This document shows, piece after piece, positions 1,469-25,775 of a DNA stretch of 25,775 nucleotides; position 1 is the stretch's first letter, and every line of letters starts with the position of its first letter. The notes under the pieces are model-generated. The model saw only the letters and a list, made by a program, of their open reading frames with translations, was not told the DNA's origin and made no database searches. The position numbers and the translations under genes were made by a program. The DNA is from Chthonomonas calidirosea (lineage in GTDB: Bacteria > Armatimonadota > Chthonomonadetes > Chthonomonadales > CAJBBX01). The stretch lies in assembly GCA_020722705.1 (NCBI GenBank), contig DYKI01000026.1, positions 9,220-34,994 of the forward strand, given 5' to 3'.

Positions 1469-1999
1469 TCAGGGCGACGGATGCTCGTCGGGTCTGGACC
1501 GCTCCATGGACCAACTGTCGTTGCGACGACGGAATGTGGCCTGCCCCGTGATGACGAAGCCCATGCTTCGGTAGAGGCGCTCGGCTCGCGCGTTGGTCTT
1601 GACGACATTCAGCGACACCACGGGCACCTTGAGACGGTCGGTCTCGTGCAGCAGCAACTGCATCAGTCGTCGACCGTGACCCTGGCCGATCACGGAATCG
1701 TGGAGGCCGATCCCGAGCATGGGGCGTGAACATCCGATGCCCTGGACAAACGCGTGGCCCAGTATCCGTCGGCCCCGCCCGAAAAGCCCCAGACTGATGC
1801 AGAGCCCCGAGCGGACCATGTCGAAGTGCTCTCGAATGGCGTCGGGCGAGACGTAGTCGGTGGGCAGGAACATGCGCGCTACGGGCGGGGACAAGGAGCG
1901 GTAGAACGCCAGCAGCTCCGGCGCGTCGTCAGGCGCCAGACGGCATATGCTCAGGTCTGTTTCAGGCAGCAATGCTTGTACTTGCGTCCGCTGCCGCAC
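1469..1999 (-). CDS. GNAT family N-acetyltransferase. Start uncertain: GTG at 1999 would overlap the anSME 3' end by 49 nt.
   Basis: Acetyl-CoA binding motif A (QGIGCSRPMLGIGLHDSVIGQGHGRRLMQLL). Size about 170 aa. No in-frame ATG before residue 42. Confidence 0.7.
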   Translation of the reverse strand: MRQRTQVQALLPETDLSICRLAPDDAPELLAFYRSLSPPVARMFLPTDYVSPDAIREHFDMVRSGLCISLGLFGRGRRILGHAFVQGIGCSRPMLGIGLHDSVIGQGHGRRLMQLLLHETDRLKVPVVSLNVVKTNARAERLYRSMGFVITGQATFRRRNDSWSMERSRPDEHPSP

Positions 2000-3357
2000 G
2001 GGCAGGGGGCATTGCGGCCAACGGCCCGATTGGCAACGGGTATCGGGGATGCGCCGCCGCGGCGATCGGCCATGGCGTACATCCCCATGATCTCGGCTGG
2101 AGCGCGCTGAGCCTCCAGCAGTTGTGTCATCAGCCGCATATCTCTGTCAATGTGGTTGAAGAAGCGCTTGTACGACGGGCACAGGTAGTTGAGCCCGGGC
2201 TCACCATCGGGGGTCCGGCAGAAACGGTGCTTCGGGCACTCGCCGCGACAGGCAAAGAGAACCTCGCATGAACGGCAGTGGGCGGGCAGGCTGTCGCGCT
2301 TGGCATCGCCGAATGCGGTCTGCTTGGGTGAGATCACCATTGTGCGGATGTTCTGCTCCATGATGTTGCCGAGCCGGTGCTCCGGATACACGTAGTGATC
2401 GCATGCGTACAGGTCGCCGTTGTGTTCGAGAGCCATGCCGCGCCCGCACGTTTCGGCGAAGACACAGAGGGAGGCGCCGGCTCCGGCCCATATGCCCAAC
2501 GCTGTGTCGAATATCTGCACGAACACGCGCGCTACATCGTTGCGGACCCACTCGTCGTAAATCGCGCACAGGAAGATGCCAAACTGCTCGGCCTCCACGC
2601 TCCAGTCGGTGACCCTTGGGGCGGCCAGGTCGTCATCCACATCGGGAGGGCCTGCGAGCACATGCCCGGGTTTCGGACGGCGAGGACGCCGTCCCTCCCC
2701 ATCGGGAGGGTCACTGTCCTCGGTGACCGGTTTTGCGGACGGCGGCAGCCGTTCAACCAGTGGGATGAACTGGAGGAAGCGCGATCCGGCCTCCTTGAGG
2801 AACCGGTAGACCTCGAGCGGATGGTGGGCGTTGAGGCGGTTGACAACGGTCAGCGTGTTGAACTCGACGCGGTGCTTCTGCATGAGTTCGAGGCCGCGCA
2901 TGACACGGTCGAAGGATGGCCTGTCGCGCTTGTCGCGGCGATATGCATCATGCAGCTCACGTGGTCCATCCAGGCTCAGGCCGACCAGGAACTCGTGGTC
3001 ATGCAGAAACGAGCACCACTCATCGTCGAGAAGGGTGCCGTTGGTTTGAATCGCGTTGGTGATCCGCTTGCCGCGTGCGTGCTTCCGTTGCAGTTCCACG
3101 ACCTTGCGGAAGAAGCGAACCCCCAACAGCGTGGGCTCGCCCCCCTGCCAGGCGAAGTTGACCTCCGGAACTTCCTGAGCTGCGATATAGTCTCGGATGT
3201 AGCGCTCCAGCACCTCATCCGACATTGCCCATCGCCGATTGCCCGGAAAGAGATCCTCCTTCTGCAGATAGAAGCAGTATCGGCAGTCAAGGTTGCAGAT
3301 CGGCCCGATGGGCTTCGTCATTACATGAAACGCCAGCGGGCTCTTGGGAGCGGTCAT
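1951..3357 (-). CDS. Anaerobic sulfatase-maturating enzyme (radical SAM / SPASM). Carries a 20-aa repeat-derived insertion and a C-terminal SEC-C motif extension.
   Basis: CNLDCRYCFY (CxxxCxxC radical-SAM cluster), GGEPTL, multiple C-terminal Cys clusters (CRSCEVLFACRGECPKH, CPSY) typical of SPASM. C-terminal NAPCPCGSGRKYKHCC is the SEC-C metal-binding motif. ATGA overlap with the upstream sulfatase stop at 3354-3357. Confidence 0.85.
   Translation of the reverse strand: MTAPKSPLAFHVMTKPIGPICNLDCRYCFYLQKEDLFPGNRRWAMSDEVLERYIRDYIAAQEVPEVNFAWQGGEPTLLGVRFFRKVVELQRKHARGKRITNAIQTNGTLLDDEWCSFLHDHEFLVGLSLDGPRELHDAYRRDKRDRPSFDRVMRGLELMQKHRVEFNTLTVVNRLNAHHPLEVYRFLKEAGSRFLQFIPLVERLPPSAKPVTEDSDPPDGEGRRPRRPKPGHVLAGPPDVDDDLAAPRVTDWSVEAEQFGIFLCAIYDEWVRNDVARVFVQIFDTALGIWAGAGASLCVFAETCGRGMALEHNGDLYACDHYVYPEHRLGNIMEQNIRTMVISPKQTAFGDAKRDSLPAHCRSCEVLFACRGECPKHRFCRTPDGEPGLNYLCPSYKRFFNHIDRDMRLMTQLLEAQRAPAEIMGMYAMADRRGGASPIPVANRAVGRNAPCPCGSGRKYKHCCLKQT
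2644..2700. mobile_element. MITE/RPE-like insertion of the palindromic element inside the anSME ORF. Net 60 bp (in frame), flanked by a 10-bp direct repeat ATCGGGAGGG (2641-2650 and 2701-2710). Imperfect terminal inverted repeat GGGAGGGCC ... GTCCCTCCC.
   Basis: Seen directly. The core GGACGGCGAGGACGCCGTCCCTCCC sits at 2675-2699. The protein shows a duplicated PPD flanking the 20 inserted residues GEGRRPRRPKPGHVLAGPPD. Confidence 0.6.
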
Positions 3358-4715
3358 TTTCTGGACGGCGAGGACGCCGTCCCTCCCGTCGCTCTAACGG
3401 GGAACTCCGAGCTTTCGGTCCTTGCATCGCGGAGGAACGCCGCCATCCGATCGGCCACGTCCGGGTGTCGGTCGGCGATGTTGTCGCGCTCGCCCGGATC
3501 GTTGTTCAGGGCGTAGAGCTCCAGACTGGTCTGCCCTGCACGCCGGACGGCCTTCCACGATCCCATCCGGGCTGCCTGGCTGAATCCGCCTTCGTGGAAC
3601 TCCCAGTACAACGGCGGTCTGTACAGCAGCTTTCGCCCGAGCATGGCCGGCAGGACGGACACGCCGTCGGTGTTCGCCGGCACGGGCTTGTTGAGGAGTT
3701 CGCAGACGGTGGGCAGGAAATCCCAGAATGCCCACGGTTCATTGCTGACGCTGCCTGACTTGATCCGGTCGGGCCAGCGCACGATCATCGGAACCCTGAT
3801 GCCGCCCTCGTAGAGATCGCGCTTGATGCCGCGCAGCGGGCCGCTGCTGTCGAAGAAGGCGGGGTTGTGGCCGCCTTCCCTGTGCGGCCCATTGTCGCTG
3901 GTGAAGAAGACTATCGTGTTGCGCGTCAAGCCAAGCGCATCGAGCCGCTGGAGGATCGTGCCGATGCCCCGATCCATCCGGGTGATCGCTGACGCGAAGA
4001 GCTTCTCCGTCTCGGGCCAGTCGGCGTCCCTGTACTCGGGCTCGATGCGCGGAGCCTCCATCGTTCGGGCTGTGCTGTTGGCGTGCGGGGCGGTGTAGGC
4101 CAAATAGAGGAAGAAGGGCCGATCGGCGCTCCGCTCGACGAAACTCAGGGCCTCACGCGTGAACAGATCGTTGGAGTAAGCGCCTCGACGGTTCTGATCG
4201 TTCTCGTAGATGGCTTCGACAGAATCGTTGCGCCAGAGCTGTGTGGGAAAGCTGTTGTGCGCGAGCGCCTGATTCAGGTATCCGAAGAAGAAGTCGAAGC
4301 CTTGTCGGTTTGGAATGCCTGTGGTTGCCGGTTCGCCGAGCCCCCACTTGCCGACGAGAGCAGTGGCGTAACCGGCGGATCGGAATATGCCTGCAACCGA
4401 GTTCTCGCCTGGGCGCAGAGGAACGAGCGCGTTTCCGCGCACGAATGCATGCCCGGAATGCAGACCAGTCATCAAACAGCACCGGGATGGTGCGCAGACC
4501 GTGCTGCCCGCATAGCATTGGGTGAAGCGCAGGCCGCGCGTGGCCAATCTGTCAATGTTGGGCGTTTTGATCCTGGTCTGCCCGTAGCATCCCAGGTCGC
4601 CGTAGCCAAGATCGTCGGCGAGGATGAAAACGACATTGGGCGGACGGCTCGGCGGTTCGCCTGTCGTTGAAACGTGTATCGGCGTGGCGGCAAGCATGGT
4701 CGCGATAGGCAGCAT
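3354..4715 (-). CDS. Cys-type sulfatase of the arylsulfatase / N-acetylglucosamine-6-sulfatase family, probably secreted. Likely ATG start at 4715 with an upstream GGGAG; the track's 4751 start is GTG.
   Basis: Sulfatase signature CAPSRCCLMTG (C-x-P-x-R), N-terminal FILADDLGYGDLGCYG, GKWGLG. Hydrophobic N-terminus MLPIATMLAATPIHV. The stop overlaps the anSME start (ATGA). Confidence 0.85.
   Translation of the reverse strand: MLPIATMLAATPIHVSTTGEPPSRPPNVVFILADDLGYGDLGCYGQTRIKTPNIDRLATRGLRFTQCYAGSTVCAPSRCCLMTGLHSGHAFVRGNALVPLRPGENSVAGIFRSAGYATALVGKWGLGEPATTGIPNRQGFDFFFGYLNQALAHNSFPTQLWRNDSVEAIYENDQNRRGAYSNDLFTREALSFVERSADRPFFLYLAYTAPHANSTARTMEAPRIEPEYRDADWPETEKLFASAITRMDRGIGTILQRLDALGLTRNTIVFFTSDNGPHREGGHNPAFFDSSGPLRGIKRDLYEGGIRVPMIVRWPDRIKSGSVSNEPWAFWDFLPTVCELLNKPVPANTDGVSVLPAMLGRKLLYRPPLYWEFHEGGFSQAARMGSWKAVRRAGQTSLELYALNNDPGERDNIADRHPDVADRMAAFLRDARTESSEFPVRATGGTASSPSRK
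3363..3387. repeat. Solo copy of the palindromic element, lying inside the last 9 codons of the sulfatase and immediately 5' (on the mRNA) of the anSME start codon.
   Basis: Exact 25/25 match to the core GGACGGCGAGGACGCCGTCCCTCCC. Its minus-strand translation gives the sulfatase C-terminus ...TGGTASSPSRK*. Confidence 0.85.
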
Positions 4716-4806
4716 GGCGGCTCCCGTGCAATCGGTGGCGGTTGCGCGCACCTCTGCCGAAGCATCCGCGCGGGCCTGCAGTGCGACGGCGTCGGCGACA
4801 CGTGCG

Positions 4807-18388: not shown

Positions 18389-20212
18389 TCAATCCGACTG
18401 CACCACCGACACGACGGACCGTGCCGGAACCACGACGTTCATCGCGCCATCGGCGCCCACTTGCGACGTTGACGAGCGCCGCTGAGTCTGCGCGGTGCTG
18501 ACCTCGACGTGCGCCGGCTTGCCCGCCCTGAGGCCCCGAACCATGGCCTTGCCAGGTCCGGCAGGGTTGACGATCAATACAGCCGCTTGACCCGGCTTCG
18601 GGCCGATCGTGGCCAGCGCGCGGATGTCTTCATGGTCCGTGGAAACACCGATGACGGTCGAGCCGCGTGCGAACACGCGCTCCATCTGGGCCATCACATG
18701 GAATACGGGGTAGGGTGTCTTCCCGTCGGGACTGACCAGCGGATAGTTGTTCTGGTAGGTCCAGTAGTCCATGATGGTCGCGCCTGTCAGCCGGATGGTG
18801 CGTTCGTAAGCGAGCGCTGTGCGCAGGGCGTTTTCCCATGATTCCCAGGGGGACGGCAGCCGCCAGAGCTGGGCATCGTGGCCGGCTTCGAGACACCAGA
18901 CAGGCTTGCCGAACTCCCGGCCCAACTCCGCGATGGCGGCGTATTGCTTCTCCGGCACCCATAGGGCGTCCCAACAATGGAAGGCGACGGGTCCAAGATA
19001 GGGCGAAAGGGTCTTGTCCGTCAGCAGCGGACGGCAGTAGCCCACGGTTGCCATGCCATTGGCGGTGTCGCCCACGAGGAACTTCGTCTTCAGCCCGAGA
19101 TCGCGAAACCGCGGTCCGGCTCGACGGATGAACTCGGCGATCTGGGCCGAGCTGAACCTGAAGTTCACGCCGATGTCGGCCTCGTTGAACGAGAAGTGCT
19201 CGACGGTCACGCCGTACGTGTCCCGCGCGGTCACGAGGTACTTCGCTATGGCCTCAATGCAGATGTCGTACTTGTCGGCGGGGAGTGTGCGGCCCATCTG
19301 CTCGCGCTGCCCTCCGAGCATCCACTCAGGCCCTTCCCATACCGATCCGACGATGGGGATGCGACGCTTGCTGAGCTCCTGCATGAGCAGGAAGCCGGCA
19401 TGCGCCTGTGCTTCATCCTTGTAGATGCCGGGCTCGGGCGTCCACCAGTTCAGAGGTATGCCGACGCGCGCATGGGCCACGTTCAAATGCTCAAGGTTCC
19501 ATTGGCCGACGGCGTCCATGGGCTCCGTCTGGCCGTACCTCGGCTGACAGAAGTTGCCGCCGAGGCCGACCATGGTTTGCGCCTTGCGCGTCGGCATGAG
19601 CCGGATGGCCACCGTGCCGATCGGGCTTTGGGCAGAGGCCATGGCTATCACCTCGTCCAGCGTGCGCGACTTCCCGTAGTTCCGCACGTCGAGGCCGCCG
19701 ATCTCGACCGTCTGCGGCCCGAAAGCAAAGCGCAGCGAGACCATGGCCTCGCCCGGCGCATAGCTCTCGGCGGCGCGGAAGGGGACATGAACCGTGCGCC
19801 ATTTGCCCGCTTGGTTCGGTGCCGATGCCCCCAGCGAGGCGGACTTCGTCCACGGGCTCGCCGCACGCTCGAAGAGGAACATGACCTGGGCCGGATCCTT
19901 GCCGGATGCCATGCGGCCTCTGATGGAGAACGATGCGAGCATTACGTCGCCACGTTGGACGGCAGCCACGTTTGGGATCGTCAACTGCGTCACGTTGGTG
20001 TCCGGCGCGTCGCGACCGATGACCACCCTCAGCGCCTTCGTGAACGGCATTCCGCTGACGTCAATGATCTCCGATCGAGACGCCGTGCGTTCGAGGCCGC
20101 CGACGGGCTTGGTGAACAGGGCATCGCCGGCAATGACCGGGGTGCCGTCAGGCTGTGGCGAGGCCAGGATCATCGCGGCGGCACATGCCGCCAGAGCAGC
20201 CAACCGGCCCAT
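18389..20212 (-). CDS. Secreted clan GH-A glycoside hydrolase (GH30/GH39/GH79-like TIM barrel with beta-sandwich). ATG at 20212 with an AAGGAG upstream.
   Basis: Signal peptide MGRLAALAACAAAMILASP. Candidate acid/base FNEADIG (NE motif) and nucleophile WCLEAGH. Exact family not determinable by eye. Confidence 0.55.
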   Translation of the reverse strand: MGRLAALAACAAAMILASPQPDGTPVIAGDALFTKPVGGLERTASRSEIIDVSGMPFTKALRVVIGRDAPDTNVTQLTIPNVAAVQRGDVMLASFSIRGRMASGKDPAQVMFLFERAASPWTKSASLGASAPNQAGKWRTVHVPFRAAESYAPGEAMVSLRFAFGPQTVEIGGLDVRNYGKSRTLDEVIAMASAQSPIGTVAIRLMPTRKAQTMVGLGGNFCQPRYGQTEPMDAVGQWNLEHLNVAHARVGIPLNWWTPEPGIYKDEAQAHAGFLLMQELSKRRIPIVGSVWEGPEWMLGGQREQMGRTLPADKYDICIEAIAKYLVTARDTYGVTVEHFSFNEADIGVNFRFSSAQIAEFIRRAGPRFRDLGLKTKFLVGDTANGMATVGYCRPLLTDKTLSPYLGPVAFHCWDALWVPEKQYAAIAELGREFGKPVWCLEAGHDAQLWRLPSPWESWENALRTALAYERTIRLTGATIMDYWTYQNNYPLVSPDGKTPYPVFHVMAQMERVFARGSTVIGVSTDHEDIRALATIGPKPGQAAVLIVNPAGPGKAMVRGLRAGKPAHVEVSTAQTQRRSSTSQVGADGAMNVVVPARSVVSVVQSD

Positions 20213-20291
20213 GTTCGCTGTCGCTCCTTTCGGGTACGAAGTACGGGGACGACGGGTCCCGACCCGGCGCAATGGGACGCGCCGGCGGGCA

Positions 20292-23132
20292 TCAGGGTAC
20301 CTCGACTTCGTAGGTCATTCTGGCTTTGCCCCCGGCATCCACAGACAGCGGGATGACGAGCGCGCCGTCCTTCACCGTGGCCGGCACCCGGGCGAGGCGT
20401 TTGCCGCTCATGCTCAGCGCCCATACCTGCGCTTTGTCGGCGCCCTGCATGCGGATGGTCACCGTGGCCGAGCCGTTCAGCACCAGATGCGGCAGGCCTC
20501 CCCATGCGAGGAGCAGACGGCGATCCATGTCGCCATAGCGGATGCCGGAGTTCTGCAGGTCGGTCAGATGGGTGATCAGCAGACGTTTGCTGGACGGGAT
20601 GGGGTCGGCGTCGAGGCTCGATACCCACACCGTGGCGTCGGTCTTTTCGATCGTGACCGCAACGGCGTCGGTCGTGATCGTCGAACCTTCGGGCGCATAG
20701 CCTCCCGCCGTCCGCGGTGTGTTGATGGTCAGCGTGTCGGCAGGCGCATCCACGGTTAGCTGCCCGTTCTCGCTCTGGAAACGCGGACCTTCAAACGAAG
20801 TCGGGTTGGAGGGCTTGATCCATCCGCGCCTGCGCATCTCCGTCACGAGCTTGTCGCCCGCGTCCGGTGCGAACGGGTCGGCGAGACGCCCTTGTGTCCG
20901 CGCAGGGTCGGCCCATCCCAGCGGGAGCGTGATCGTGGCATTGCTCGGAGCCGCGGCTTTGGGCAGGTAGCCGACCTTCGAGACCCAGGCGAGGCCGTTC
21001 CATCCAGTGACCGCGCTCCTGGAGGACTCGGGCTTCTGAAGCACGTCGGCCGGGGCAGCCTCGATGGCGATGGTGTTGCGCGCCGATGCGAGATCGCCGC
21101 GGAGGAACATGCAGAGCGAGGCACGCTCGGCAGCCAGGTTGAGCGGGTCGGTGACGATGTCAAAGTAGCCCATGGTGGCCGGAGTGAATAGCGCGTCGCG
21201 ATTGTGCCCCCAGGCGAAGCGCCAGATCACGCCCCAGTCCTGAATGGCGCCCAGGGCGCCGGTCAGTATGCCGCCCACGCCTCGGAAACGGCCCGGCCCT
21301 GAGTAGTTGTATTCGCTGACCGTGAACGGGCGGTCCAGGAGCCGCAGCGAGGCGCAGTTTCGTCCGCCGGGCGCGCCGGCGGCCACGGGGCTGGTGTTGG
21401 GGCAGCGCGATGGGAGCTGCCATGGCCGCTCGACGAACTCGGGATGATCCACATAGAAATGGTCATCCACGTAGTCATAGCCCGCCCTGACGGCCTGCAT
21501 CTGCACCGGATTGGTCCATGCGTTCTGGTTGGAGAGCAGCGCCGCGCAGTGGATCTCTTTGAGGAAAGCGGCCACCCGTTGCTGCAGTTGGGCCTGGTTC
21601 TCCGCGAGGAACACGTCGAAGGTGACCCGCGCGCGTGCGTTCGTCGGTGGGAATGGGGCCGCCGGATCGCTCTGCCCGCCCAGGGCTTCTGCCCTTGCCG
21701 CAGGCGACGGATACTTCCGATCCAGCCATGCTTGCCACGCCCGTATCCAGTCGGCCTTGCACCGATCCGGCAGGCGGCCAATGAAGTTGCCCGGGTTGCC
21801 CTCGTTGATGAGGTTCAGCCACGCCAGAGCGGGGTCCTCTCCCCATCGGGTGTGGGTGTAGGGGTTCAGGTGGGTCAGGAGGGCGGTTGTGAACGCCCGG
21901 TAGTTCGCAAAAGCCCGTTCGTTGACCGGCACCGCCATCTTATATTCGTCCATGCCCACATCGCCGCTCTCGCCCGGCCATACCTCGGCGGCAAAGACCG
22001 GACGCGAGACGAAGAGGTCGGTGGTCATGTAGATGCCGCGCTTCTTCAGGGCAGCGAACAGGTAGTCGAGTTGGTCGAGCTTCTGATGGTTGAGCGTCAC
22101 GCTGTTGCCGCCCGAGCGGTCAATAAGCTCGCCTTCGTAGTGGTGGAAGCGCACGGCGTTGTAGCCCATGCGACGCAGACGGTCGGCCAGTCGATCGGAT
22201 TGCTCGTGGGTCAGGTACTGGGCGCTAAAGCACAGGTTGACGCCGTAGAAACGAACTGGTTTGTTGGGCTCGCGCTCGAACACAAAGTGGGGCCCGGATG
22301 CCTTGACGCGGCCCAGCTTGCCGGCAGGCTCATGCCAGGGCACGAGGCTGCTGAAGTCGAGCGCCGACCCGGGTTCGATGTTGGTCTCAACGTCGAGCGG
22401 AATCCAGTCGGGACCCGCTGTGAGCGTGATGGGACGGTCCTGTTCCACTTTGACACCTCCGGACGAAGTGAGCGTGAACGCCAGATCCAGCGACCGACCG
22501 GCGGGCCATGGCTCCGCGCCGTTCATCTGTGGGCCGATGCGGATGGTGAACGACGGTCCCCACTGTCGGTCATCCTGCAGCAGCGCCGGTGTTGGTGTAT
22601 CGAAGCGGAGTGTCAGCTCCAATCCTGACGGCGACCTGAGCGTCAGCTCCGATGTGGGCTGTGAGCGGAGATGGACGGCTCCAAACTGCGACGGGAAAAC
22701 GCCGTTCTCTCCATCGGCCGTATAGGAACCGCCGGCGAGGTTTGCCGCGGGCACCGACATGGCAACGTGCAGGCTGTTGAGCCGGATCGCCGAGCGCGGC
22801 GTGAGGCGATATTCGAACCTCGCTCGGACGCCGTCCTGCTTCACGCGCGTCTCGCAGTCAACGACGGTTCCTCCGGGAGCGCGGATCGTGCCGCGCAGGA
22901 CGTCGGACCCATCGTCGGAGCCGGTCCCACCCATCGTGGCGCCCTGCCACTCGACCTCGAATAGGCCGGGGGCCATGCTCGCGAAGCTCCGGCGACCGAG
23001 GCGCACATCCACGGAGCCCGATGCCGATACGCGGAGCGTGCATTGTTTCGCTTTGGCAGTCTGTCCCCAGGCGCTCACAGCGGCAACGGGGACGAGCCCG
23101 CCCAATAGGAAGCCGACCATGGCCTTCATCAT
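20292..23132 (-). CDS. Large secreted glycoside hydrolase (946 aa): clan GH-A TIM-barrel core (GH5/GH42-like) flanked by N- and C-terminal beta-sandwich domains.
   Basis: Signal peptide MMKAMVGFLLGGLVPVAAVSAWG. VRFYGVNLCF...RRMGYNAVRFHH (R..G.N.VR TIM-barrel start). Candidate acid/base LINEGN and nucleophile TVSEYN. GGGAGG Shine-Dalgarno upstream. Confidence 0.55.
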   Translation of the reverse strand: MMKAMVGFLLGGLVPVAAVSAWGQTAKAKQCTLRVSASGSVDVRLGRRSFASMAPGLFEVEWQGATMGGTGSDDGSDVLRGTIRAPGGTVVDCETRVKQDGVRARFEYRLTPRSAIRLNSLHVAMSVPAANLAGGSYTADGENGVFPSQFGAVHLRSQPTSELTLRSPSGLELTLRFDTPTPALLQDDRQWGPSFTIRIGPQMNGAEPWPAGRSLDLAFTLTSSGGVKVEQDRPITLTAGPDWIPLDVETNIEPGSALDFSSLVPWHEPAGKLGRVKASGPHFVFEREPNKPVRFYGVNLCFSAQYLTHEQSDRLADRLRRMGYNAVRFHHYEGELIDRSGGNSVTLNHQKLDQLDYLFAALKKRGIYMTTDLFVSRPVFAAEVWPGESGDVGMDEYKMAVPVNERAFANYRAFTTALLTHLNPYTHTRWGEDPALAWLNLINEGNPGNFIGRLPDRCKADWIRAWQAWLDRKYPSPAARAEALGGQSDPAAPFPPTNARARVTFDVFLAENQAQLQQRVAAFLKEIHCAALLSNQNAWTNPVQMQAVRAGYDYVDDHFYVDHPEFVERPWQLPSRCPNTSPVAAGAPGGRNCASLRLLDRPFTVSEYNYSGPGRFRGVGGILTGALGAIQDWGVIWRFAWGHNRDALFTPATMGYFDIVTDPLNLAAERASLCMFLRGDLASARNTIAIEAAPADVLQKPESSRSAVTGWNGLAWVSKVGYLPKAAAPSNATITLPLGWADPARTQGRLADPFAPDAGDKLVTEMRRRGWIKPSNPTSFEGPRFQSENGQLTVDAPADTLTINTPRTAGGYAPEGSTITTDAVAVTIEKTDATVWVSSLDADPIPSSKRLLITHLTDLQNSGIRYGDMDRRLLLAWGGLPHLVLNGSATVTIRMQGADKAQVWALSMSGKRLARVPATVKDGALVIPLSVDAGGKARMTYEVEVP

Positions 23133-23234
23133 GTTTCCTCCCTAAAGCGACGTCCGGCGCGATCAGGCGTTCGAAAGCGACTGTACCGCGGCATCACTTG
23201 CCGACGCCGGCGCGGCACCCTGAGTGTCCCCGTT

Positions 23235-24014
23235 CTACTCACTCTCGACGTTCTCCTCGTCATCGGGTGTCGGCGTGGGGCCAGGAGACCGTACGGGGAT
23301 TGGGCCTGCTGACTGCGTGCCGAGTATGACCGTGTTGCCGCCTGCCTGGACCGCGGCTCGCGCCACTTCCAGTTCGCGCAGGCGCAGCAAGGCGGGATGG
23401 GCCTCGATCAGGCGCGCGGTGTTGAGCAGCGAGCGCATCGCAGCCGCCTCCTCACGCGCGGAGTTCAGGGCAGCGTGGGCAAGGCGCTTCACCTCGACCT
23501 CCTTCATCAGCAGGTTGCGCACATGGGGCGAGAAAATCACATCCTTGACACCGACGGAGTGCAGTGTCAGACCGTACTTTGCGGCGGTCGGGGCGACGGT
23601 GCGTTGCAGTTCTTCTCCGAGACCGCCATGGTCGCCGAGAACCTGTTCGAGCGTGATGCCGGCCACGGCGTTGCGGGCCGCAAGCTGCACGTCGGCGTAA
23701 AGCTGATCCGCGTAGCTGTCCACGGTAAGGACTGCCGCCTGCGGGTCCGTTACCGAGTAGGATGCGATCAGGTTGAGGGTCACCGTCACGTTGTCCGATG
23801 TCAGCATCTTCTGGTTGGTCAGTTGAAGGTTGGTTCGGCGAATGTCCACAACGTGTATGGTGACTCCGGTGAAGGGCCAGATGCGGTATTTGCCCGGTTC
23901 AATGAGGCGGCTGAACACGCCGTTCCGGAACAGGATGCCGCGCTCGCCCTCGTAGACGATGACCTTCCCGATCCGTCGGACTCGGGGCCGGATGTCACAA
24001 AAGCCTGTACGCAT
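23235..24014 (-). CDS. SPFH / band-7 (stomatin/slipin-like) domain protein. ATG at 24014.
   Basis: GERGILFRNGVF...IEPGKYRIWPF..V..VDIR...Q.MLTSDNVTV...A....V.DP..A...V.D......L is the SPFH core. Coiled-coil tail and an acidic Pro-rich C-terminus. The track's extension to 24578 is unsupported. Confidence 0.75.
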   Translation of the reverse strand: MRTGFCDIRPRVRRIGKVIVYEGERGILFRNGVFSRLIEPGKYRIWPFTGVTIHVVDIRRTNLQLTNQKMLTSDNVTVTLNLIASYSVTDPQAAVLTVDSYADQLYADVQLAARNAVAGITLEQVLGDHGGLGEELQRTVAPTAAKYGLTLHSVGVKDVIFSPHVRNLLMKEVEVKRLAHAALNSAREEAAAMRSLLNTARLIEAHPALLRLRELEVARAAVQAGGNTVILGTQSAGPIPVRSPGPTPTPDDEENVESE

Positions 24015-24135
24015 CGAAGTCCCCTCTCGAAGAGATTTCCGGCCGGGCGGCGGTCGGCCTGCCGAGAGACGCGGGAAACGCACCAGAGGGCCGCTTCGCA
24101 TGGCGCCTCCGGCACCTTGCCGACCTCTCGCCCGG

Positions 24136-24160
24136 CACACAGCATCGGAGTCGAACCGAT
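24136..24160 (-). other. tRNA 3'-half-like fragment: T-arm ATCGG-TTCGACT-CCGAT plus a 7-nt acceptor 3' strand and discriminator, with no matching 5' acceptor strand, D-arm or anticodon arm nearby. Candidate integration-site (att) remnant.
   Basis: Seen directly on the minus strand: GATCGGTTCGACTCCGATGCTGTGTG. GGTTCGANTCC is the canonical T-loop. No sequence within about 110 nt upstream can pair as a 5' acceptor strand. Confidence 0.35.
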
Positions 24161-24389
24161 CAACCTCTGCCGGGACCAAACGCGGGACGCTCCCAGCGCC
24201 GCAGGTCTCCGACAGCAGAGTGTAGCACTCCGGCAAGAGGCAAGAGGCCAGAGACCAGAGACGACTCAGGCAGCCATGGGGCGGTACAATCAAGCTCTGG
24301 GCAGCGTTTGGACCGGACGACCGAACGTCTGTCTCGTCCCAATAGTGCCCATCCGGAAAGCTGCCTACGTGCCGATATGATTGGAGACA

Positions 24390-24423
24390 GTCCTTCAAGA
24401 GTTGTCCATCCCCTTTGAAGGAC
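24390..24423. promoter_or_regulatory. Perfect 9-bp inverted repeat GTCCTTCAA ... TTGAAGGAC (16-nt spacer), 20 nt upstream of the HTH ORF. Candidate operator, terminator or IS terminal structure.
   Basis: Seen directly. Lies in the AT-richer 24240-24480 segment. Confidence 0.3.
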
Positions 24424-24442
24424 GGGAAAGGCACAAGAGAGC

Positions 24443-24751
24443 TTGTCTGAAAACAACAACAATAGCGGCACTCGGTCGGATGCAGTTCCGACGACGGAGC
24501 TGCAGATCGAGAGGATCGGTCCGGACCCACACGTGGTTGCGGGCGTCTCGATCTATGGCACGCGCTACACGAGGGCATTCAAGCTCCAGGTGCTCAAGGA
24601 CGCGGACGCCTGCGCGGAACCCGGCGACATCGGCCGCATGCTGCGGCGGCATGGCGTCACCCACACGACGCTGACTTCGTTTCGTCGGCAGCGCGCATCG
24701 GGCGCTCTGTCGCCGGCTCGCACCGGCGGGCCTTTACGTCTCAATGCTTGA
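24443..24751 (+). CDS. Small HTH protein resembling an IS3-family transposase OrfA (HTH_Tnp_1-like), truncated with no OrfB. Probable IS remnant or domesticated regulator. TTG start.
   Basis: ...GTRYTRAFKLQVLKDADACAEPGDIGRMLRRHGVTHTTLTSFRRQ matches the OrfA pattern (Y..EFK...V......g.s...ia...Gv....l..WrkQ). No DDE-domain ORF follows. Confidence 0.45.
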   Translation: MSENNNNSGTRSDAVPTTELQIERIGPDPHVVAGVSIYGTRYTRAFKLQVLKDADACAEPGDIGRMLRRHGVTHTTLTSFRRQRASGALSPARTGGPLRLNA

Positions 24752-24772
24752 TTGTGGGAAGGAGCCGCAGGA

Positions 24773-25775
24773 TTGCATACAGATGCATCGTCAGGATGGG
24801 CAAACGACGAGCTGACCCTGGTGCTTATCGGGATCGTGCTGGCGCTGACGCTGATAGCCGGCGGCATCAGGTGGTTGCGGCTTGAGAGCTTGAGGCGGGC
24901 GGCCCGCATGACGTTCTCTCATGGGGGAGCGCTCCAGGAGGGACCTGACGGACCGGCACCGTTCGGTCCGGGCAACACGGCCTTGGCTACAGAAGACACC
25001 GTCGTTCCGCACTGGGTGGATGGGTCCGACTCGCATCAGTGGCTTGACAGAGGCGAGTACGCCACCTATGGAGCGATGAGTGCCGCAGCCATCGTGTGGG
25101 GATGGGCGAGCATTGATCCCGACATCGTGGCGGCCGCCGACTTCGCTTCCGAAGCGGGGATCCGCAACGGGTTCGACTTCGCGCAGTATATCCACGCTCA
25201 TATGGACGGGCTCAGGGAGGCTGCGAAAGAGGGTTTCCTCTCTCGCTTGCAGGGCTACATCGGTGAGCGCCAGGTTGCCGACATTCTGATGGCCCAGGGG
25301 CACACCGTGGAGCTTGCCGCGACCGCGAATCAGCCGATCTGGGACCTGCTGATGGACGGGCATGCCGTCAACGTGAAGACGGTGGCGGAGACTGCCTCCG
25401 TCCTGGACGTCGCGGCGGATCATCCCGACGTCACGTACATCGTGCCTGCCGATGCTCACGGCGAAACGGCGCACAACGTGCTTCGGCTGGAGGGCTTCAG
25501 CCACGAAACAGCGAAGGAGGCCGTCCATGAGAGCATCGCCGCTGCTCACGGCGATACGGCGCTTCAGTGGATCATGCATAACGTGCCGTGGGTGACGCTG
25601 GGGTTCTCGGCTTTGAGGCAATACCACGCGGTGGAGAAGGGGAAACCGATCGGCGTCGCTATCCATCACGGTCTGGCCGACACAGTAGGCAGGGGAGGCG
25701 GGGCTATCCTCGGAGCGAAAGCAGGGGCCGCCATCGGCACGCTCGTCGGACCAGTGGGCACGCTTGTCGGCGCTG
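24773..25775 (+). CDS. Partial ORF (more than 334 codons, no stop before the window end). N-terminal single TM helix, a central region with a NERD/YraN-like PD-(D/E)xK-type motif, and a C-terminal glycine-zipper segment. Start tentative: TTG at 24773 with an AGGAG 8 nt upstream; first ATG at 24908.
   Basis: TM LTLVLIGIVLALTLIAGGI. GYIGERQVADILMAQGHTVELAATANQPIWDLLMDGHAVNVKT resembles G..GE..A..L...G......(D)L.......V.VKT of YraN/NERD nuclease folds (E replaced by N). C-terminus GRGGGAILGAKAGAAIGTLVGPVGTLVGA is a GxxxG glycine zipper. Third-position GC is high; the antisense 292-aa ORF is Arg-rich junk. Confidence 0.55.
   Translation, partial: MHTDASSGWANDELTLVLIGIVLALTLIAGGIRWLRLESLRRAARMTFSHGGALQEGPDGPAPFGPGNTALATEDTVVPHWVDGSDSHQWLDRGEYATYGAMSAAAIVWGWASIDPDIVAAADFASEAGIRNGFDFAQYIHAHMDGLREAAKEGFLSRLQGYIGERQVADILMAQGHTVELAATANQPIWDLLMDGHAVNVKTVAETASVLDVAADHPDVTYIVPADAHGETAHNVLRLEGFSHETAKEAVHESIAAAHGDTALQWIMHNVPWVTLGFSALRQYHAVEKGKPIGVAIHHGLADTVGRGGGAILGAKAGAAIGTLVGPVGTLVGA

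Follow-up and report, generated by a model that had tools for sequence, protein, structure and literature searches.

SNIPE (PD-lambda-1) is a nuclease, bound to the membrane, which cleaves phage DNA in the course of injection. It is a single-pass, N-out transmembrane (TM) protein in which membrane anchoring keeps the cytoplasmic nuclease off self-DNA (PMC13190303). SNIPE is the only membrane-resident defence nuclease that we found in the literature searched, and with it came the idea that self and non-self DNA can be told apart by spatial confinement. Among nucleases more broadly, the PD-(D/E)xK motif is known to be variable, and Q replaces E in the active enzyme BtgZI (PMC4081073), while (D/E/Q)xK has been taken as the NERD signature in the work that also put forward PDC-M72 as a candidate system (bioRxiv 10.1101/2024.01.29.577857). 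That candidate came from 'guilt-by-embedding', an approach by which 7/9 tested candidates were defensive (bioRxiv 10.1101/2024.01.29.577857).

Here we describe a gene at the end of a 25,775-nucleotide stretch of bacterial DNA (the window). The 508-aa product starts with a TM helix at its N-terminus, continues with a PD-(D/E)xK-fold domain and a hairpin formed by a double GxxxG zipper, and finishes with a helical C-terminal domain of about 160 aa. A previous reading of the window from its letters alone (the sequence-only reading) had noted the first three of these parts and could not match their combination to a described family. Our searches of Pfam, NCBIfam and the literature agree: no model in either database covers the nuclease-like domain, the protein as a whole gets no NCBIfam match, and no description of a TM + PD-(D/E)xK + glycine-zipper family was found.

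Results

The plus frame from a TTG codon at 24773 stays open for 334 codons, up to the end of the window. A Shine-Dalgarno-like GGGAAGGAG (24756..24764, plus strand) can be read 8 nt 5' of this start, which the gene callers of public collections also pick. The coding sequence in the window (24773..25775, plus strand) gives residues 1-334 and continues past the window end. The sequence-only reading had called for the downstream sequence, and an NCBI contig (L049) supplies it: identical to the window end over all 1003 bases (100%), it carries the whole gene at L049:8440-9966 and completes the ORF at 508 aa. The plus-strand protein has 23 homologues (E from 7e-217 to 2e-18), and a profile search retrieved 925 cluster representatives at E<=1e-10, of which 456 reach E<=1e-30.

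A 292-aa ORF is present on the opposite strand (24791..25669, minus strand), and the sequence-only reading had named its conservation as a check on the plus-strand ORF. Homologues and a host-like GC3 were found for the plus frame only (GC3 0.757 vs 0.669 in the antisense ORF), and the antisense ORF has no Pfam match. The longest antisense stop-free run in homologous genes falls from 403 aa (64% GC) and 330 aa (67%) to 135 aa (55%) and 94 aa (46%). Since stop codons interrupt that frame in homologues of lower GC, we regard it not as a gene but as a shadow ORF that arises from a coding region with 64% GC. The homologue search, GC3 and the frames of low-GC homologues together make it practically negligible that the antisense ORF is the gene or that the region is non-coding. 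The plus-strand ORF is a real, conserved gene.

The N-terminal TM helix spans residues 13-32 (24809..24868, plus strand), as indicated by Kyte-Doolittle hydropathy, charge bias and AF2, and is followed by the basic stretch RWLRLESLRRAAR. Residues 14-32, LTLVLIGIVLALTLIAGGI, have a Kyte-Doolittle mean of 2.64 over 19 residues, in agreement with the single N-terminal TM helix read earlier. Across the family, the mean number of K+R is 0.16 in the 15 aa preceding the TM helix vs 3.97 in the 15 aa after it. By the positive-inside rule, the sole basis of this call, the predicted topology is N-out, C-in, with everything after the TM helix cytoplasmic. The full-length AF2 model has a pLDDT of 82 and is helical over residues 8-54. 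The protein is predicted to reside in the inner membrane. A linker at residues 54-84 (24932..25024, plus strand) separates the anchor from the nuclease-like module. It is lineage-specific, as it aligns only in the three closest homologues, and is modelled with low confidence (pLDDT < 50 at residues 54-57 and 59-84).

The nuclease-like module begins with a helical N-terminal subdomain, residues 85-148 (25025..25216, plus strand), delimited by the AF2 models and the alignment, in which W109 and S126 are invariant. The core follows at residues 149-240 (25217..25492, plus strand), bounded by the helices and strands of the model: a helix at 149-174, strands at 179-181, 192-194 and 197-201, a helix at 208-216, and strands at 221-225 and 236-239. 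Modelled by itself, the domain has a pLDDT of 83.6 and the order alpha-beta-beta-beta-alpha-beta, and Foldseek gives a local match to I-Ssp6803I with probability 0.97. The sequence-only reading had proposed a restriction-enzyme-like fold and suggested structure prediction as the check; what the prediction returned is, as modelled, the alpha-beta-beta-beta-alpha-beta core of the PD-(D/E)xK superfamily.

The motif GYIGERQVADIL...PIWDLLMDGHAVNVKT (residues 161-203, nt 25253-25381) is the most conserved part of the protein, and G161, E165, D191, D195, G196, N200 and K202 are invariant in 22 homologues. E165 (25265..25267, plus strand), the acidic residue that helix 1 contributes to the predicted active site, is E in 163/163 aligned family representatives. 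D191 (25343..25345, plus strand), the 'PD' aspartate that opens strand 2 (QPIWD), is D in 164/164. N200-V-K202 (25370..25378, plus strand) forms a variant (D/E)xK triplet closing strand 3, by the family counts: K202 is K in 164 of 165 representatives, and position 200 is N in 112, Q in 47, D in 5 and S in 1 (N/Q/D in 164/165). Judged by this conservation, N or Q at position 200 is a conserved variant site rather than decay. The sequence-only reading had seen Asn in place of the catalytic Glu and offered an inactive or a variant site; of the two, the variant site is by far the likelier, since the Asn belongs to a family-wide N/Q change and E165, D191 and K202 are all but invariant. MspI was considered as a D...NxK precedent and dropped, because its Asn is assigned to the Lys position (PMC4081073).

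Assignment to a NERD or YraN type, as first suggested, did not hold up. NERD (PF08378) gave no match at E<=1 for the window fragment or at E<=0.1 for five full-length members, and YraN/UPF0102 (PF02021) gave no Pfam match at E<=1 for the fragment, nor any for full-length members. YraN/UPF0102 proteins are small and soluble, about 120 aa, unlike the 508-aa, membrane-anchored protein here, and the nearest structural neighbours of the domain are other branches of the superfamily. In sequence searches of the PDB, neither the protein nor the domain profile found more than chance matches to ribosomal proteins, and a word-indexed homology search with the domain profile gained only fragments. The one model with resemblance to the domain was that of the PADLOC candidate PDC-M72B, which matches it weakly in 15/22 members (E 1.4e-6 to 2.1e-8); in a model of 193 positions, the stretch aligned with residues 140-258 is 26-149. 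Four neighbours were scanned (L001 downstream; L006, L007 and L021 upstream) and none matches a PDC-M72 model, and literature searches on PDC-M72 found nothing. These E-values indicate a related domain, by sequence, and not membership of the system.

The first arm of the predicted glycine-zipper hairpin falls in the window (residues 306-334; 25688..25775, plus strand) and is seen by Pfam, the glycine ladder, AF2 and the alignment. From residue 306 (nt 25688), where the G-rich stretch starts, glycines recur at i+4 (G306/310/314/318/322/326, then G329/333/337/341), and a five-glycine i+4 ladder arose in 2/2000 shuffles of the protein. Pfam Gly-zipper_Omp (PF13488) scores 29.0 bits on the full-length protein (P0001), above the gathering cut-off of 25, and 14.1 bits on the window fragment, which is cut. 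In the P0001 allele the zipper reaches about residue 345 with a turn at P327, and AF2 places its helices at 293-325 and 327-349. G308, G310, G318, G322, P327, G329 and G341 are invariant. Two near-identical alleles differ by an indel of four residues, equal to a single GxxxG unit. The hairpin is moderately hydrophobic, with a Kyte-Doolittle value of only about 1.9, and contains Lys residues. A GxxxGxxxG zipper follows the nuclease-like domain in 165/165 representatives examined, a figure that is biased because the profile used to pick this set included the zipper. The sequence-only reading was right about the zipper itself and wrong about its C-terminal place, which is central: it seemed C-terminal because the window ends there, and about 160 residues follow, forming a helical domain with a conserved WWLWPDF motif. 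DUF6861 (PF21724) scores 22.7-26.4 bits, under its 28-bit gathering cut-off, on the zipper part only. LeoBC weakly matches only the zipper and the following helix (4/22 members, best E 2.4e-4), and the protein has no dynamin-type GTPase domain of the Eleos/LeoBC kind.

Upstream of the gene lies a 102-aa ORF (24443..24751, plus strand) with a transposase-type HTH below threshold (HTH_Tnp_1, E=4.7e-4, 20.8 bits vs a cut-off of 24.1; IS66 TnpA, E=0.043). What had been called an IS remnant is therefore an HTH ORF under threshold; it is a neighbour rather than a conserved partner, as it is missing beside the closest homologue (L010). The search for a downstream immunity-like gene, also suggested earlier, turned up none that is conserved. 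Neighbour clustering across 24 distinct lineages found no partner or immunity gene, with nothing common to more than three (DUF4407 in three), and neither the 102-aa ORF nor a 184-aa downstream ORF is shared with a 62%-identical homologue. That no neighbour family occurs in more than 3/24 lineages suggests a stand-alone, single-gene module. No tRNA gene that could border an island was found in 20000-25775. The interval 23900-25775 has no promoter-like site, and its terminator-like sites are at chance level only.

Elsewhere the gene keeps varied company. Defence neighbours occur in many lineages (CRISPR-Cas, McrBC, type I RM, PDC-M60, Hma/DISARM-like embedding). Individual loci carry a complete PDC-M60ABC (L002), DUF1848/PDC-S02/HsdM (L006), a GajB-like UvrD plus McrB (L007), two dynamin GTPases (L024), an AAA_21 ATPase (L027), McrBC (L043) and CRISPR-Cas plus RtcR (L046/47). 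A DUF1156 methylase and a PLD-SNF2 helicase enclose the gene in L032-L036, which is the arrangement that 'guilt-by-embedding' looks for. At many other loci the neighbours are purely housekeeping genes (pyruvate kinase, transaldolase, ATP synthase epsilon, DivIVA). The gene adjoins IS110, rve, resolvase or relaxase genes at several loci, and in several its GC3 lies below that of neighbouring genes (0.55 vs 0.82 in L014; 0.45 vs 0.71 in L019); together these observations suggest horizontal acquisition. The spread of the family is patchy, reaching Armatimonadota, Acidobacteriota, Bacteroidota, Acinetobacter and a Paracoccus plasmid. As no relatives were found among INPHARED phages or IMG/VR viral contigs, a phage-borne origin is unsupported.

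Discussion

Considering the site, the anchor and the genomic contexts together, we infer that the protein is most likely a stand-alone, membrane-confined defence nuclease, a reading to which we give about an even chance. Under this proposal the domain would be a metal-dependent nuclease whose metal is held by the Glu of helix 1 and the Asp of strand 2, with the Lys and the N/Q making up the rest of the site. Attachments on either side of its catalytic domain would tether the enzyme to the membrane's cytoplasmic face, and this tethering may keep it away from the nucleoid. It would need no partner to act against phages or mobile elements, as an effector whose target is nucleic acid reaching or crossing the membrane, with its activity controlled by the C-terminal helical domain, by zipper-mediated oligomerisation, or by both. 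An Asn at a metal-ligand position of (D/E)xK could weaken or alter catalysis and counts against this proposal, as do the many loci with housekeeping neighbours. The universal glycine zipper is unexplained by a pure nuclease model.

That zipper is the starting point of a rival explanation, which we think unlikely: an abortive-infection membrane effector whose hairpin oligomerises into a pore or depolarising lesion, with the PD-(D/E)xK-like domain acting mainly as sensor or trigger and not as killer. Tde1 (PMC10240207) and TelE (PMC10434224) require their glycine zippers to permeabilise membranes or to be toxic, and the zipper here, with its next helix, bears a weak likeness to the membrane paddle of the dynamin-like proteins LeoBC and DUF3482; one homologue (L024) even lies directly upstream of two dynamin GTPases. 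The presence of the zipper behind the domain in every representative would fit such an effector, yet that figure carries the selection bias noted above, and the Lys residues and modest hydrophobicity make the hairpin look more like a monotopic anchor than a classic pore helix. The swap of the middle acidic residue for N or Q favours a sensor, but E165, D191 and K202 are conserved almost absolutely across clusters that share less than 50% identity, as one would expect where a site hydrolyses its substrate and not where a domain only binds it.

A non-defence host role, as a membrane-attached nuclease or DNA-binding protein engaged, for example, in DNA processing at the membrane during uptake, repair or segregation, would also account for the conserved catalytic residues and for the gene being inserted on its own between housekeeping genes, as it is in roughly one in three of the lineages examined. 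We consider it improbable given the patchy distribution across phyla and on a Paracoccus plasmid, the GC3 atypical of the host, the mobile-element and defence genes found repeatedly beside the gene, and the lack of any conserved operon partner. More improbable still is an interbacterial or polymorphic nuclease toxin, paired with an immunity gene, whose zipper aids crossing of the target-cell membrane. Pfam scans of members gave glycine-zipper-type matches only and no recognised secretion or delivery domain, with the DUF6861 scores under cut-off and confined to the zipper. The Pfam-annotated neighbours examined belong to defence, mobile elements or housekeeping, none being a recognised secretion-system component. 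No downstream gene is conserved, even against the 62%-identical homologue, and the 184-aa downstream ORF has three relatives only, none linked to the family. An N-terminal anchor with its charges on the C-terminal side would, moreover, hold the protein in the membrane of its producer. The sequence-only reading had listed toxin, effector and defence component together. Defence or effector, still to be taken as a suggestion, fits the contexts of the homologues, and the missing delivery domain and context count against toxin.

We more tentatively propose that the membrane-confined nuclease is a second, independently evolved form of membrane-localised nuclease immunity, in which a PD-(D/E)xK domain clamped to the inner membrane face by a TM helix and a zipper either destroys entering foreign DNA or couples DNA detection to zipper-driven permeabilisation, with no partner gene needed. 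If true, a large family built of unrelated parts would follow the principle of SNIPE, and the strategy would have arisen more than once. If the zipper is the effector, nucleic-acid sensing would be tied directly to membrane damage within one polypeptide. Neither Pfam nor NCBIfam has a model for the family, which at 50% identity comprises at least 456 clusters and would offer a compact single-gene system for testing. With its conserved N/Q-x-K site it would also add a new branch to the PD-(D/E)xK superfamily, which should be useful for annotation, since homologues bearing a source name are labelled only as hypothetical proteins.

Among solved PD-(D/E)xK folds, the nearest are the influenza/Thogoto PA-N cap-snatching endonucleases, CdiA-CT of B. 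pseudomallei, Hjc, XisH and I-Ssp6803I. The domain described here has in common with them the alpha-beta-beta-beta-alpha-beta core, the helix-1 Glu, the Asp opening strand 2 and the x-K closing strand 3. It differs in having no sequence-level match to a solved or Pfam family, in its N or Q at the middle acidic position, and in being flanked by a TM helix on one side and a glycine-zipper hairpin on the other, as none of those relatives is. PDC-M72 is a multi-gene system whose protein B models have 168-193 positions, whereas the 508-aa protein here also carries the TM helix, the zipper and a C-terminal domain. GxxxGxxxG ladders stand beside a nuclease or toxin domain in Tde1 (N-terminal zipper), TelE (C-terminal zipper) and DUF6861, as they do here, but our family has no secretion context, a different domain order and an N-terminal anchor.

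Like SNIPE, the system consists of one protein, with an N-terminus that is short and periplasmic, one TM helix and a nuclease that lies in the cytoplasm (predicted here). The two also have in common a non-catalytic domain that probably sets specificity, and membrane tethering as the proposed safeguard between self and non-self. The function of SNIPE has been shown experimentally, whereas that of the present family is proposed. SNIPE is built of DUF4041 and GIY-YIG domains, to neither of which the protein here has a Pfam or PADLOC match, and it has no glycine zipper, which our protein does. By this analogy the family would resemble SNIPE in its working principle, with unrelated domains.

The plus-strand ORF is a conserved gene

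From a TTG at 24773, with GGGAAGGAG as a ribosome-binding site 8 nt 5' of it, the plus frame runs for 334 codons without a stop up to the end of the window, and its translation starts MHTDASSGWANDELTLVLIGIVLALTLIAGGIRWLRLESLRRAAR. The sequence-only reading had allowed that an antisense ORF of 292 aa (24791-25669, minus strand) might instead be the true gene. Homology searching with the plus frame returned 23 homologues (E 7e-217 to 2e-18), and its GC3 of 0.757, compared with 0.669 for the antisense ORF, is like that of the other genes in the window (0.75-0.80). Over the homologous genes, the longest antisense stop-free run shrinks with GC content, from 403 aa at 64% GC and 330 aa at 67% to 135 aa at 55% and 94 aa at 46%. 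We conclude that this ORF is a GC shadow and that gene behaviour is limited to the plus frame.

The sequence beyond the window came from an NCBI contig (L049; GCA_975218785.1, CDHNLD010000180.1) that is identical over 1003/1003 window bases and agrees with the window in its upstream genes; on it the ORF completes as a 508-aa protein (L049:8440-9966). A Logan contig, L001, differs by 1 base in the window part and encodes a 504-aa allele, P0001 (L001:472-1986). The 508-aa and 504-aa alleles are near-identical, differing at residue 244 (E244D) and in four inserted residues, AAAG, within the glycine zipper just past the window end; the insertion is exactly one GxxxG unit and thus preserves the i+4 zipper register. 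L001 matches the window near-perfectly from ~24327 on, and its first ~25 bases deviate (window 24300-24325 vs L001:1-25), which might reflect either noise at the assembly end or the edge of a mobile segment.

Domain architecture and membrane topology

Residue numbering follows the 504-aa P0001 and is the same in the 508-aa allele up to residue 333. In an AlphaFold2 model built on 22 homologues (mean pLDDT 82), a long helix (residues 8-54), strongly hydrophobic at residues 14-32 (KD 2.64), leads through a low-confidence linker present in the closest relatives only (54-84) to a helical subdomain (85-148). The core that follows comprises a helix (149-174), strands at 179-181, 192-194 and 197-201, a helix (208-216) and strands at 221-225 and 236-239. 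Helices at residues 244-290 then lead to a helical hairpin with a glycine ladder (293-325 and 327-349), and a C-terminal helical domain runs from the hairpin to the protein end. The glycine zipper noticed earlier is thus present, the full-length protein exceeding the Pfam Gly-zipper_Omp threshold (29.0 vs 25 bits), but it is central rather than C-terminal, since a helical domain follows it in the 508-aa protein.

A hydrophobic 19-mer (KD >1.6) lies at the extreme N-terminus in 106 of the 146 members with enough N-terminal sequence. Mean Lys+Arg rises from 0.16 over the preceding 15 residues to 3.97 over the following 15; under the positive-inside rule, this charge pattern is the reverse of a signal peptide. 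We therefore predict an N-out/C-in orientation with a cytoplasmic nuclease-like domain. With its moderate hydrophobicity (KD up to 1.89) and its lysines, the zipper hairpin fits a monotopic re-entrant anchor; so placed, the C-terminal domain is predicted to be cytoplasmic likewise and the catalytic domain to have a membrane tether on either side.

A predicted new branch of the PD-(D/E)xK superfamily

The structure prediction gives a restriction-endonuclease-like fold. By our own classification of the proteins listed, 9 of the 12 best structural matches and roughly half of the first 60 are PD-(D/E)xK proteins. Matches include bunyavirus and arenavirus cap-snatching endonucleases, the R2 restriction-like endonuclease, the restriction enzymes NgoMIV, PaqCI, HindIII, Ecl18kI, Cfr10I and BsaWI, and XisH, YaeQ, Hjc, a tRNA-splicing endonuclease subunit and I-Ssp6803I. 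Searching 1.84 billion cluster representatives with a profile, we obtained 2730 hits at E<=1e-3, of which 925 have E<=1e-10 and 456 have E<=1e-30; 165 available members were then aligned against the domain profile. Position 165 is Glu (163/163), position 191 Asp (164/164) and position 202 Lys (164/165), while position 200 is Asn in 112 of the 165 members, Gln in 47, Asp in 5 and Ser in 1. Tn7 TnsA likewise has E, D and Q-x-K. The PD-(D/E)xK motif is variable, and BtgZI, an active enzyme, has Gln instead of Glu (PMC4081073); (D/E/Q)xK is taken as the NERD signature (bioRxiv 10.1101/2024.01.29.577857). Since the three catalytic positions are invariant across clusters <50% identical, the site is unlikely to be decayed. 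Asn in place of the catalytic Glu had been read as an inactive or variant site; E165/D191/N200-x-K202 is, as judged from the alignment, probably a functional variant.

Assignment to the NERD/YraN type is not supported, as neither model matches the protein. No Pfam model matches the nuclease-like domain, whether in the window fragment, five full-length members or ten distant ones; Pfam matches are of zipper type only (Gly-zipper_Omp and, below threshold, DUF6861, C19orf12 and DUF3482), and NCBIfam gives none. PADLOC models of PDC-M72B, a protein of one of the 145 candidate defence systems from 'guilt-by-embedding' (bioRxiv 10.1101/2024.01.29.577857), align to residues 140-258 (E 1.4e-6) and match 15/22 members (best E 2.1e-8). 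However, these models span 168-193 positions and come from a multi-gene system, whereas the family protein has 508 aa, and no PDC-M72 partner lies beside the family gene in the loci scanned with PADLOC; we therefore take the match as a sign of a related domain and not of membership. The gene is real and conserved and belongs to a large family for which neither Pfam nor NCBIfam has a model. We place this family in the PD-(D/E)xK superfamily as a predicted branch that is new and undescribed, with an unusual architecture that would clamp it to the membrane.

Genomic context of the family

We compared 41 distinct homologue loci (L001-L048 minus L023, L041 and the duplicates L026, L029, L030, L045 and L047), counting apart the window's own contig L049 and a Paracoccus plasmid (L023), where a 767-aa relative adjoins an IS110 transposase. 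The taxa given for genome contigs belong mostly to Armatimonadota (Chthonomonadales, Fimbriimonadales, Capsulimonadaceae), with Acinetobacter, Acidobacteriota and Bacteroidota beyond them; a search of phage genomes and viral contigs found no relatives. Neighbour clustering across 24 lineages (<70% identity) gave no partner common to more than three, the sole one reaching three being DUF4407 at position -1, so the family gene appears to work alone.

In many lineages, the neighbours are defence or mobile-element genes. These include a complete PDC-M60ABC candidate system with a resolvase and a relaxase (L002); DUF1848, PDC-S02/NucS-like, GIY-YIG and HsdM genes (L006); Cas6, a Csx1-like protein, Cas1, Cas2 and RtcR (L046:239-11977 and L047); a GajB-like UvrD helicase and McrB (L007); McrBC (L043); an AAA_21 ATPase (L027); and an rve integrase with two dynamin-family GTPases (L024:1817-7798). 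In the L046/L047 lineage, the family gene lies 11 nt 3' of a DUF1848 gene, beside RtcR (a CARF-type regulator) and the CRISPR-Cas locus. In L024, the dynamin-family genes (894 and 593 aa) begin 18 nt downstream of the homologue; the family zipper and next helix weakly resemble the LeoBC/DUF3482 membrane region, and the family may be connected in function with bacterial dynamin-like (Eleos-type) systems.

In L032-L036, where the family gene is of a ~600-aa class, a DUF1156/N6_N4 methylase lies on one side of it and a PLD-SNF2 helicase on the other, all closely packed and in one direction. On these metagenome contigs, as at L035:1147-9660, the order is DUF7680 protein, methylase, family gene, helicase. 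We take a DUF1156 methylase with a PLD/SNF2 helicase to have a putative Hma- or DISARM-type look, and the family gene here looks embedded in such a defence system. Other loci have housekeeping neighbours only. At several of these (L014, L019, L016 and L011), the GC3 of the family gene is well below that of flanking housekeeping genes (0.55 vs 0.82 at L014, 0.45 vs 0.71 at L019), as expected for an acquired gene, which suggests recent horizontal acquisition of the lone gene.

In the window itself, the IS remnant reported beside the gene is a 102-aa plus-strand ORF (24443-24751) with a sub-threshold transposase-type HTH, which is weak evidence. Ahead of it lie ~430 nt of non-coding sequence, as the 447-aa minus-strand ORF at 23235-24578 is over-extended and the real gene, per the identical NCBI contig, encodes a 259-aa SPFH/Band_7 protein (~23235-24014). 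Adjacent large minus-strand ORFs at 18389-23132 (627 and 946 aa, the latter starting signal-peptide-like) lack Pfam matches at E<=1e-5. A sulfatase gene and a radical-SAM/SPASM gene with an unusual C-terminal SEC-C motif (1951-4751, minus strand) are probably an anaerobic sulfatase-maturase pair. Downstream on L049, a 184-aa ORF without a family match precedes ORFs of 147 and 124 aa, 10 nt apart at the contig end (L001:2763-3590 / L049:10743-11570). The 124-aa ORF scores 23.5 bits against DUF5615 (PIN-like; threshold 23.8), and the two may form a toxin-antitoxin pair.

A proposed membrane-held nuclease as a candidate defence

What the sequence-only reading observed is confirmed, and its interpretation is supported with four corrections, to the nuclease type, zipper position, active site and IS remnant. 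The domain order, PD-(D/E)xK fold, invariant E/D/K, ubiquitous zipper and N-out signal are predicted from sequence, models and the family alignment. We propose that the protein may be an active nuclease anchored on the cytoplasmic side of the inner membrane, a placement that would restrict its access to the chromosome; its target would be incoming phage or plasmid nucleic acid, and the C-terminal domain and/or zipper oligomerisation may be the control element. In the main rival explanation, the zipper is the lethal part, causing abortive infection by membrane damage, and the nuclease-like domain is a sensor; in Tde1 and TelE, toxicity is known to depend on the zipper. A secreted toxin or a housekeeping role is less likely, and the links of the family to defence loci are circumstantial but repeated.

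For the membrane-held nuclease, SNIPE offers a working precedent, although it is not homologous to the family protein. SNIPE crosses the membrane once, in an N-out orientation, and uses a cytoplasmic GIY-YIG nuclease to cut phage DNA as it is injected; without its TM helix, SNIPE turns toxic (PMC13190303).
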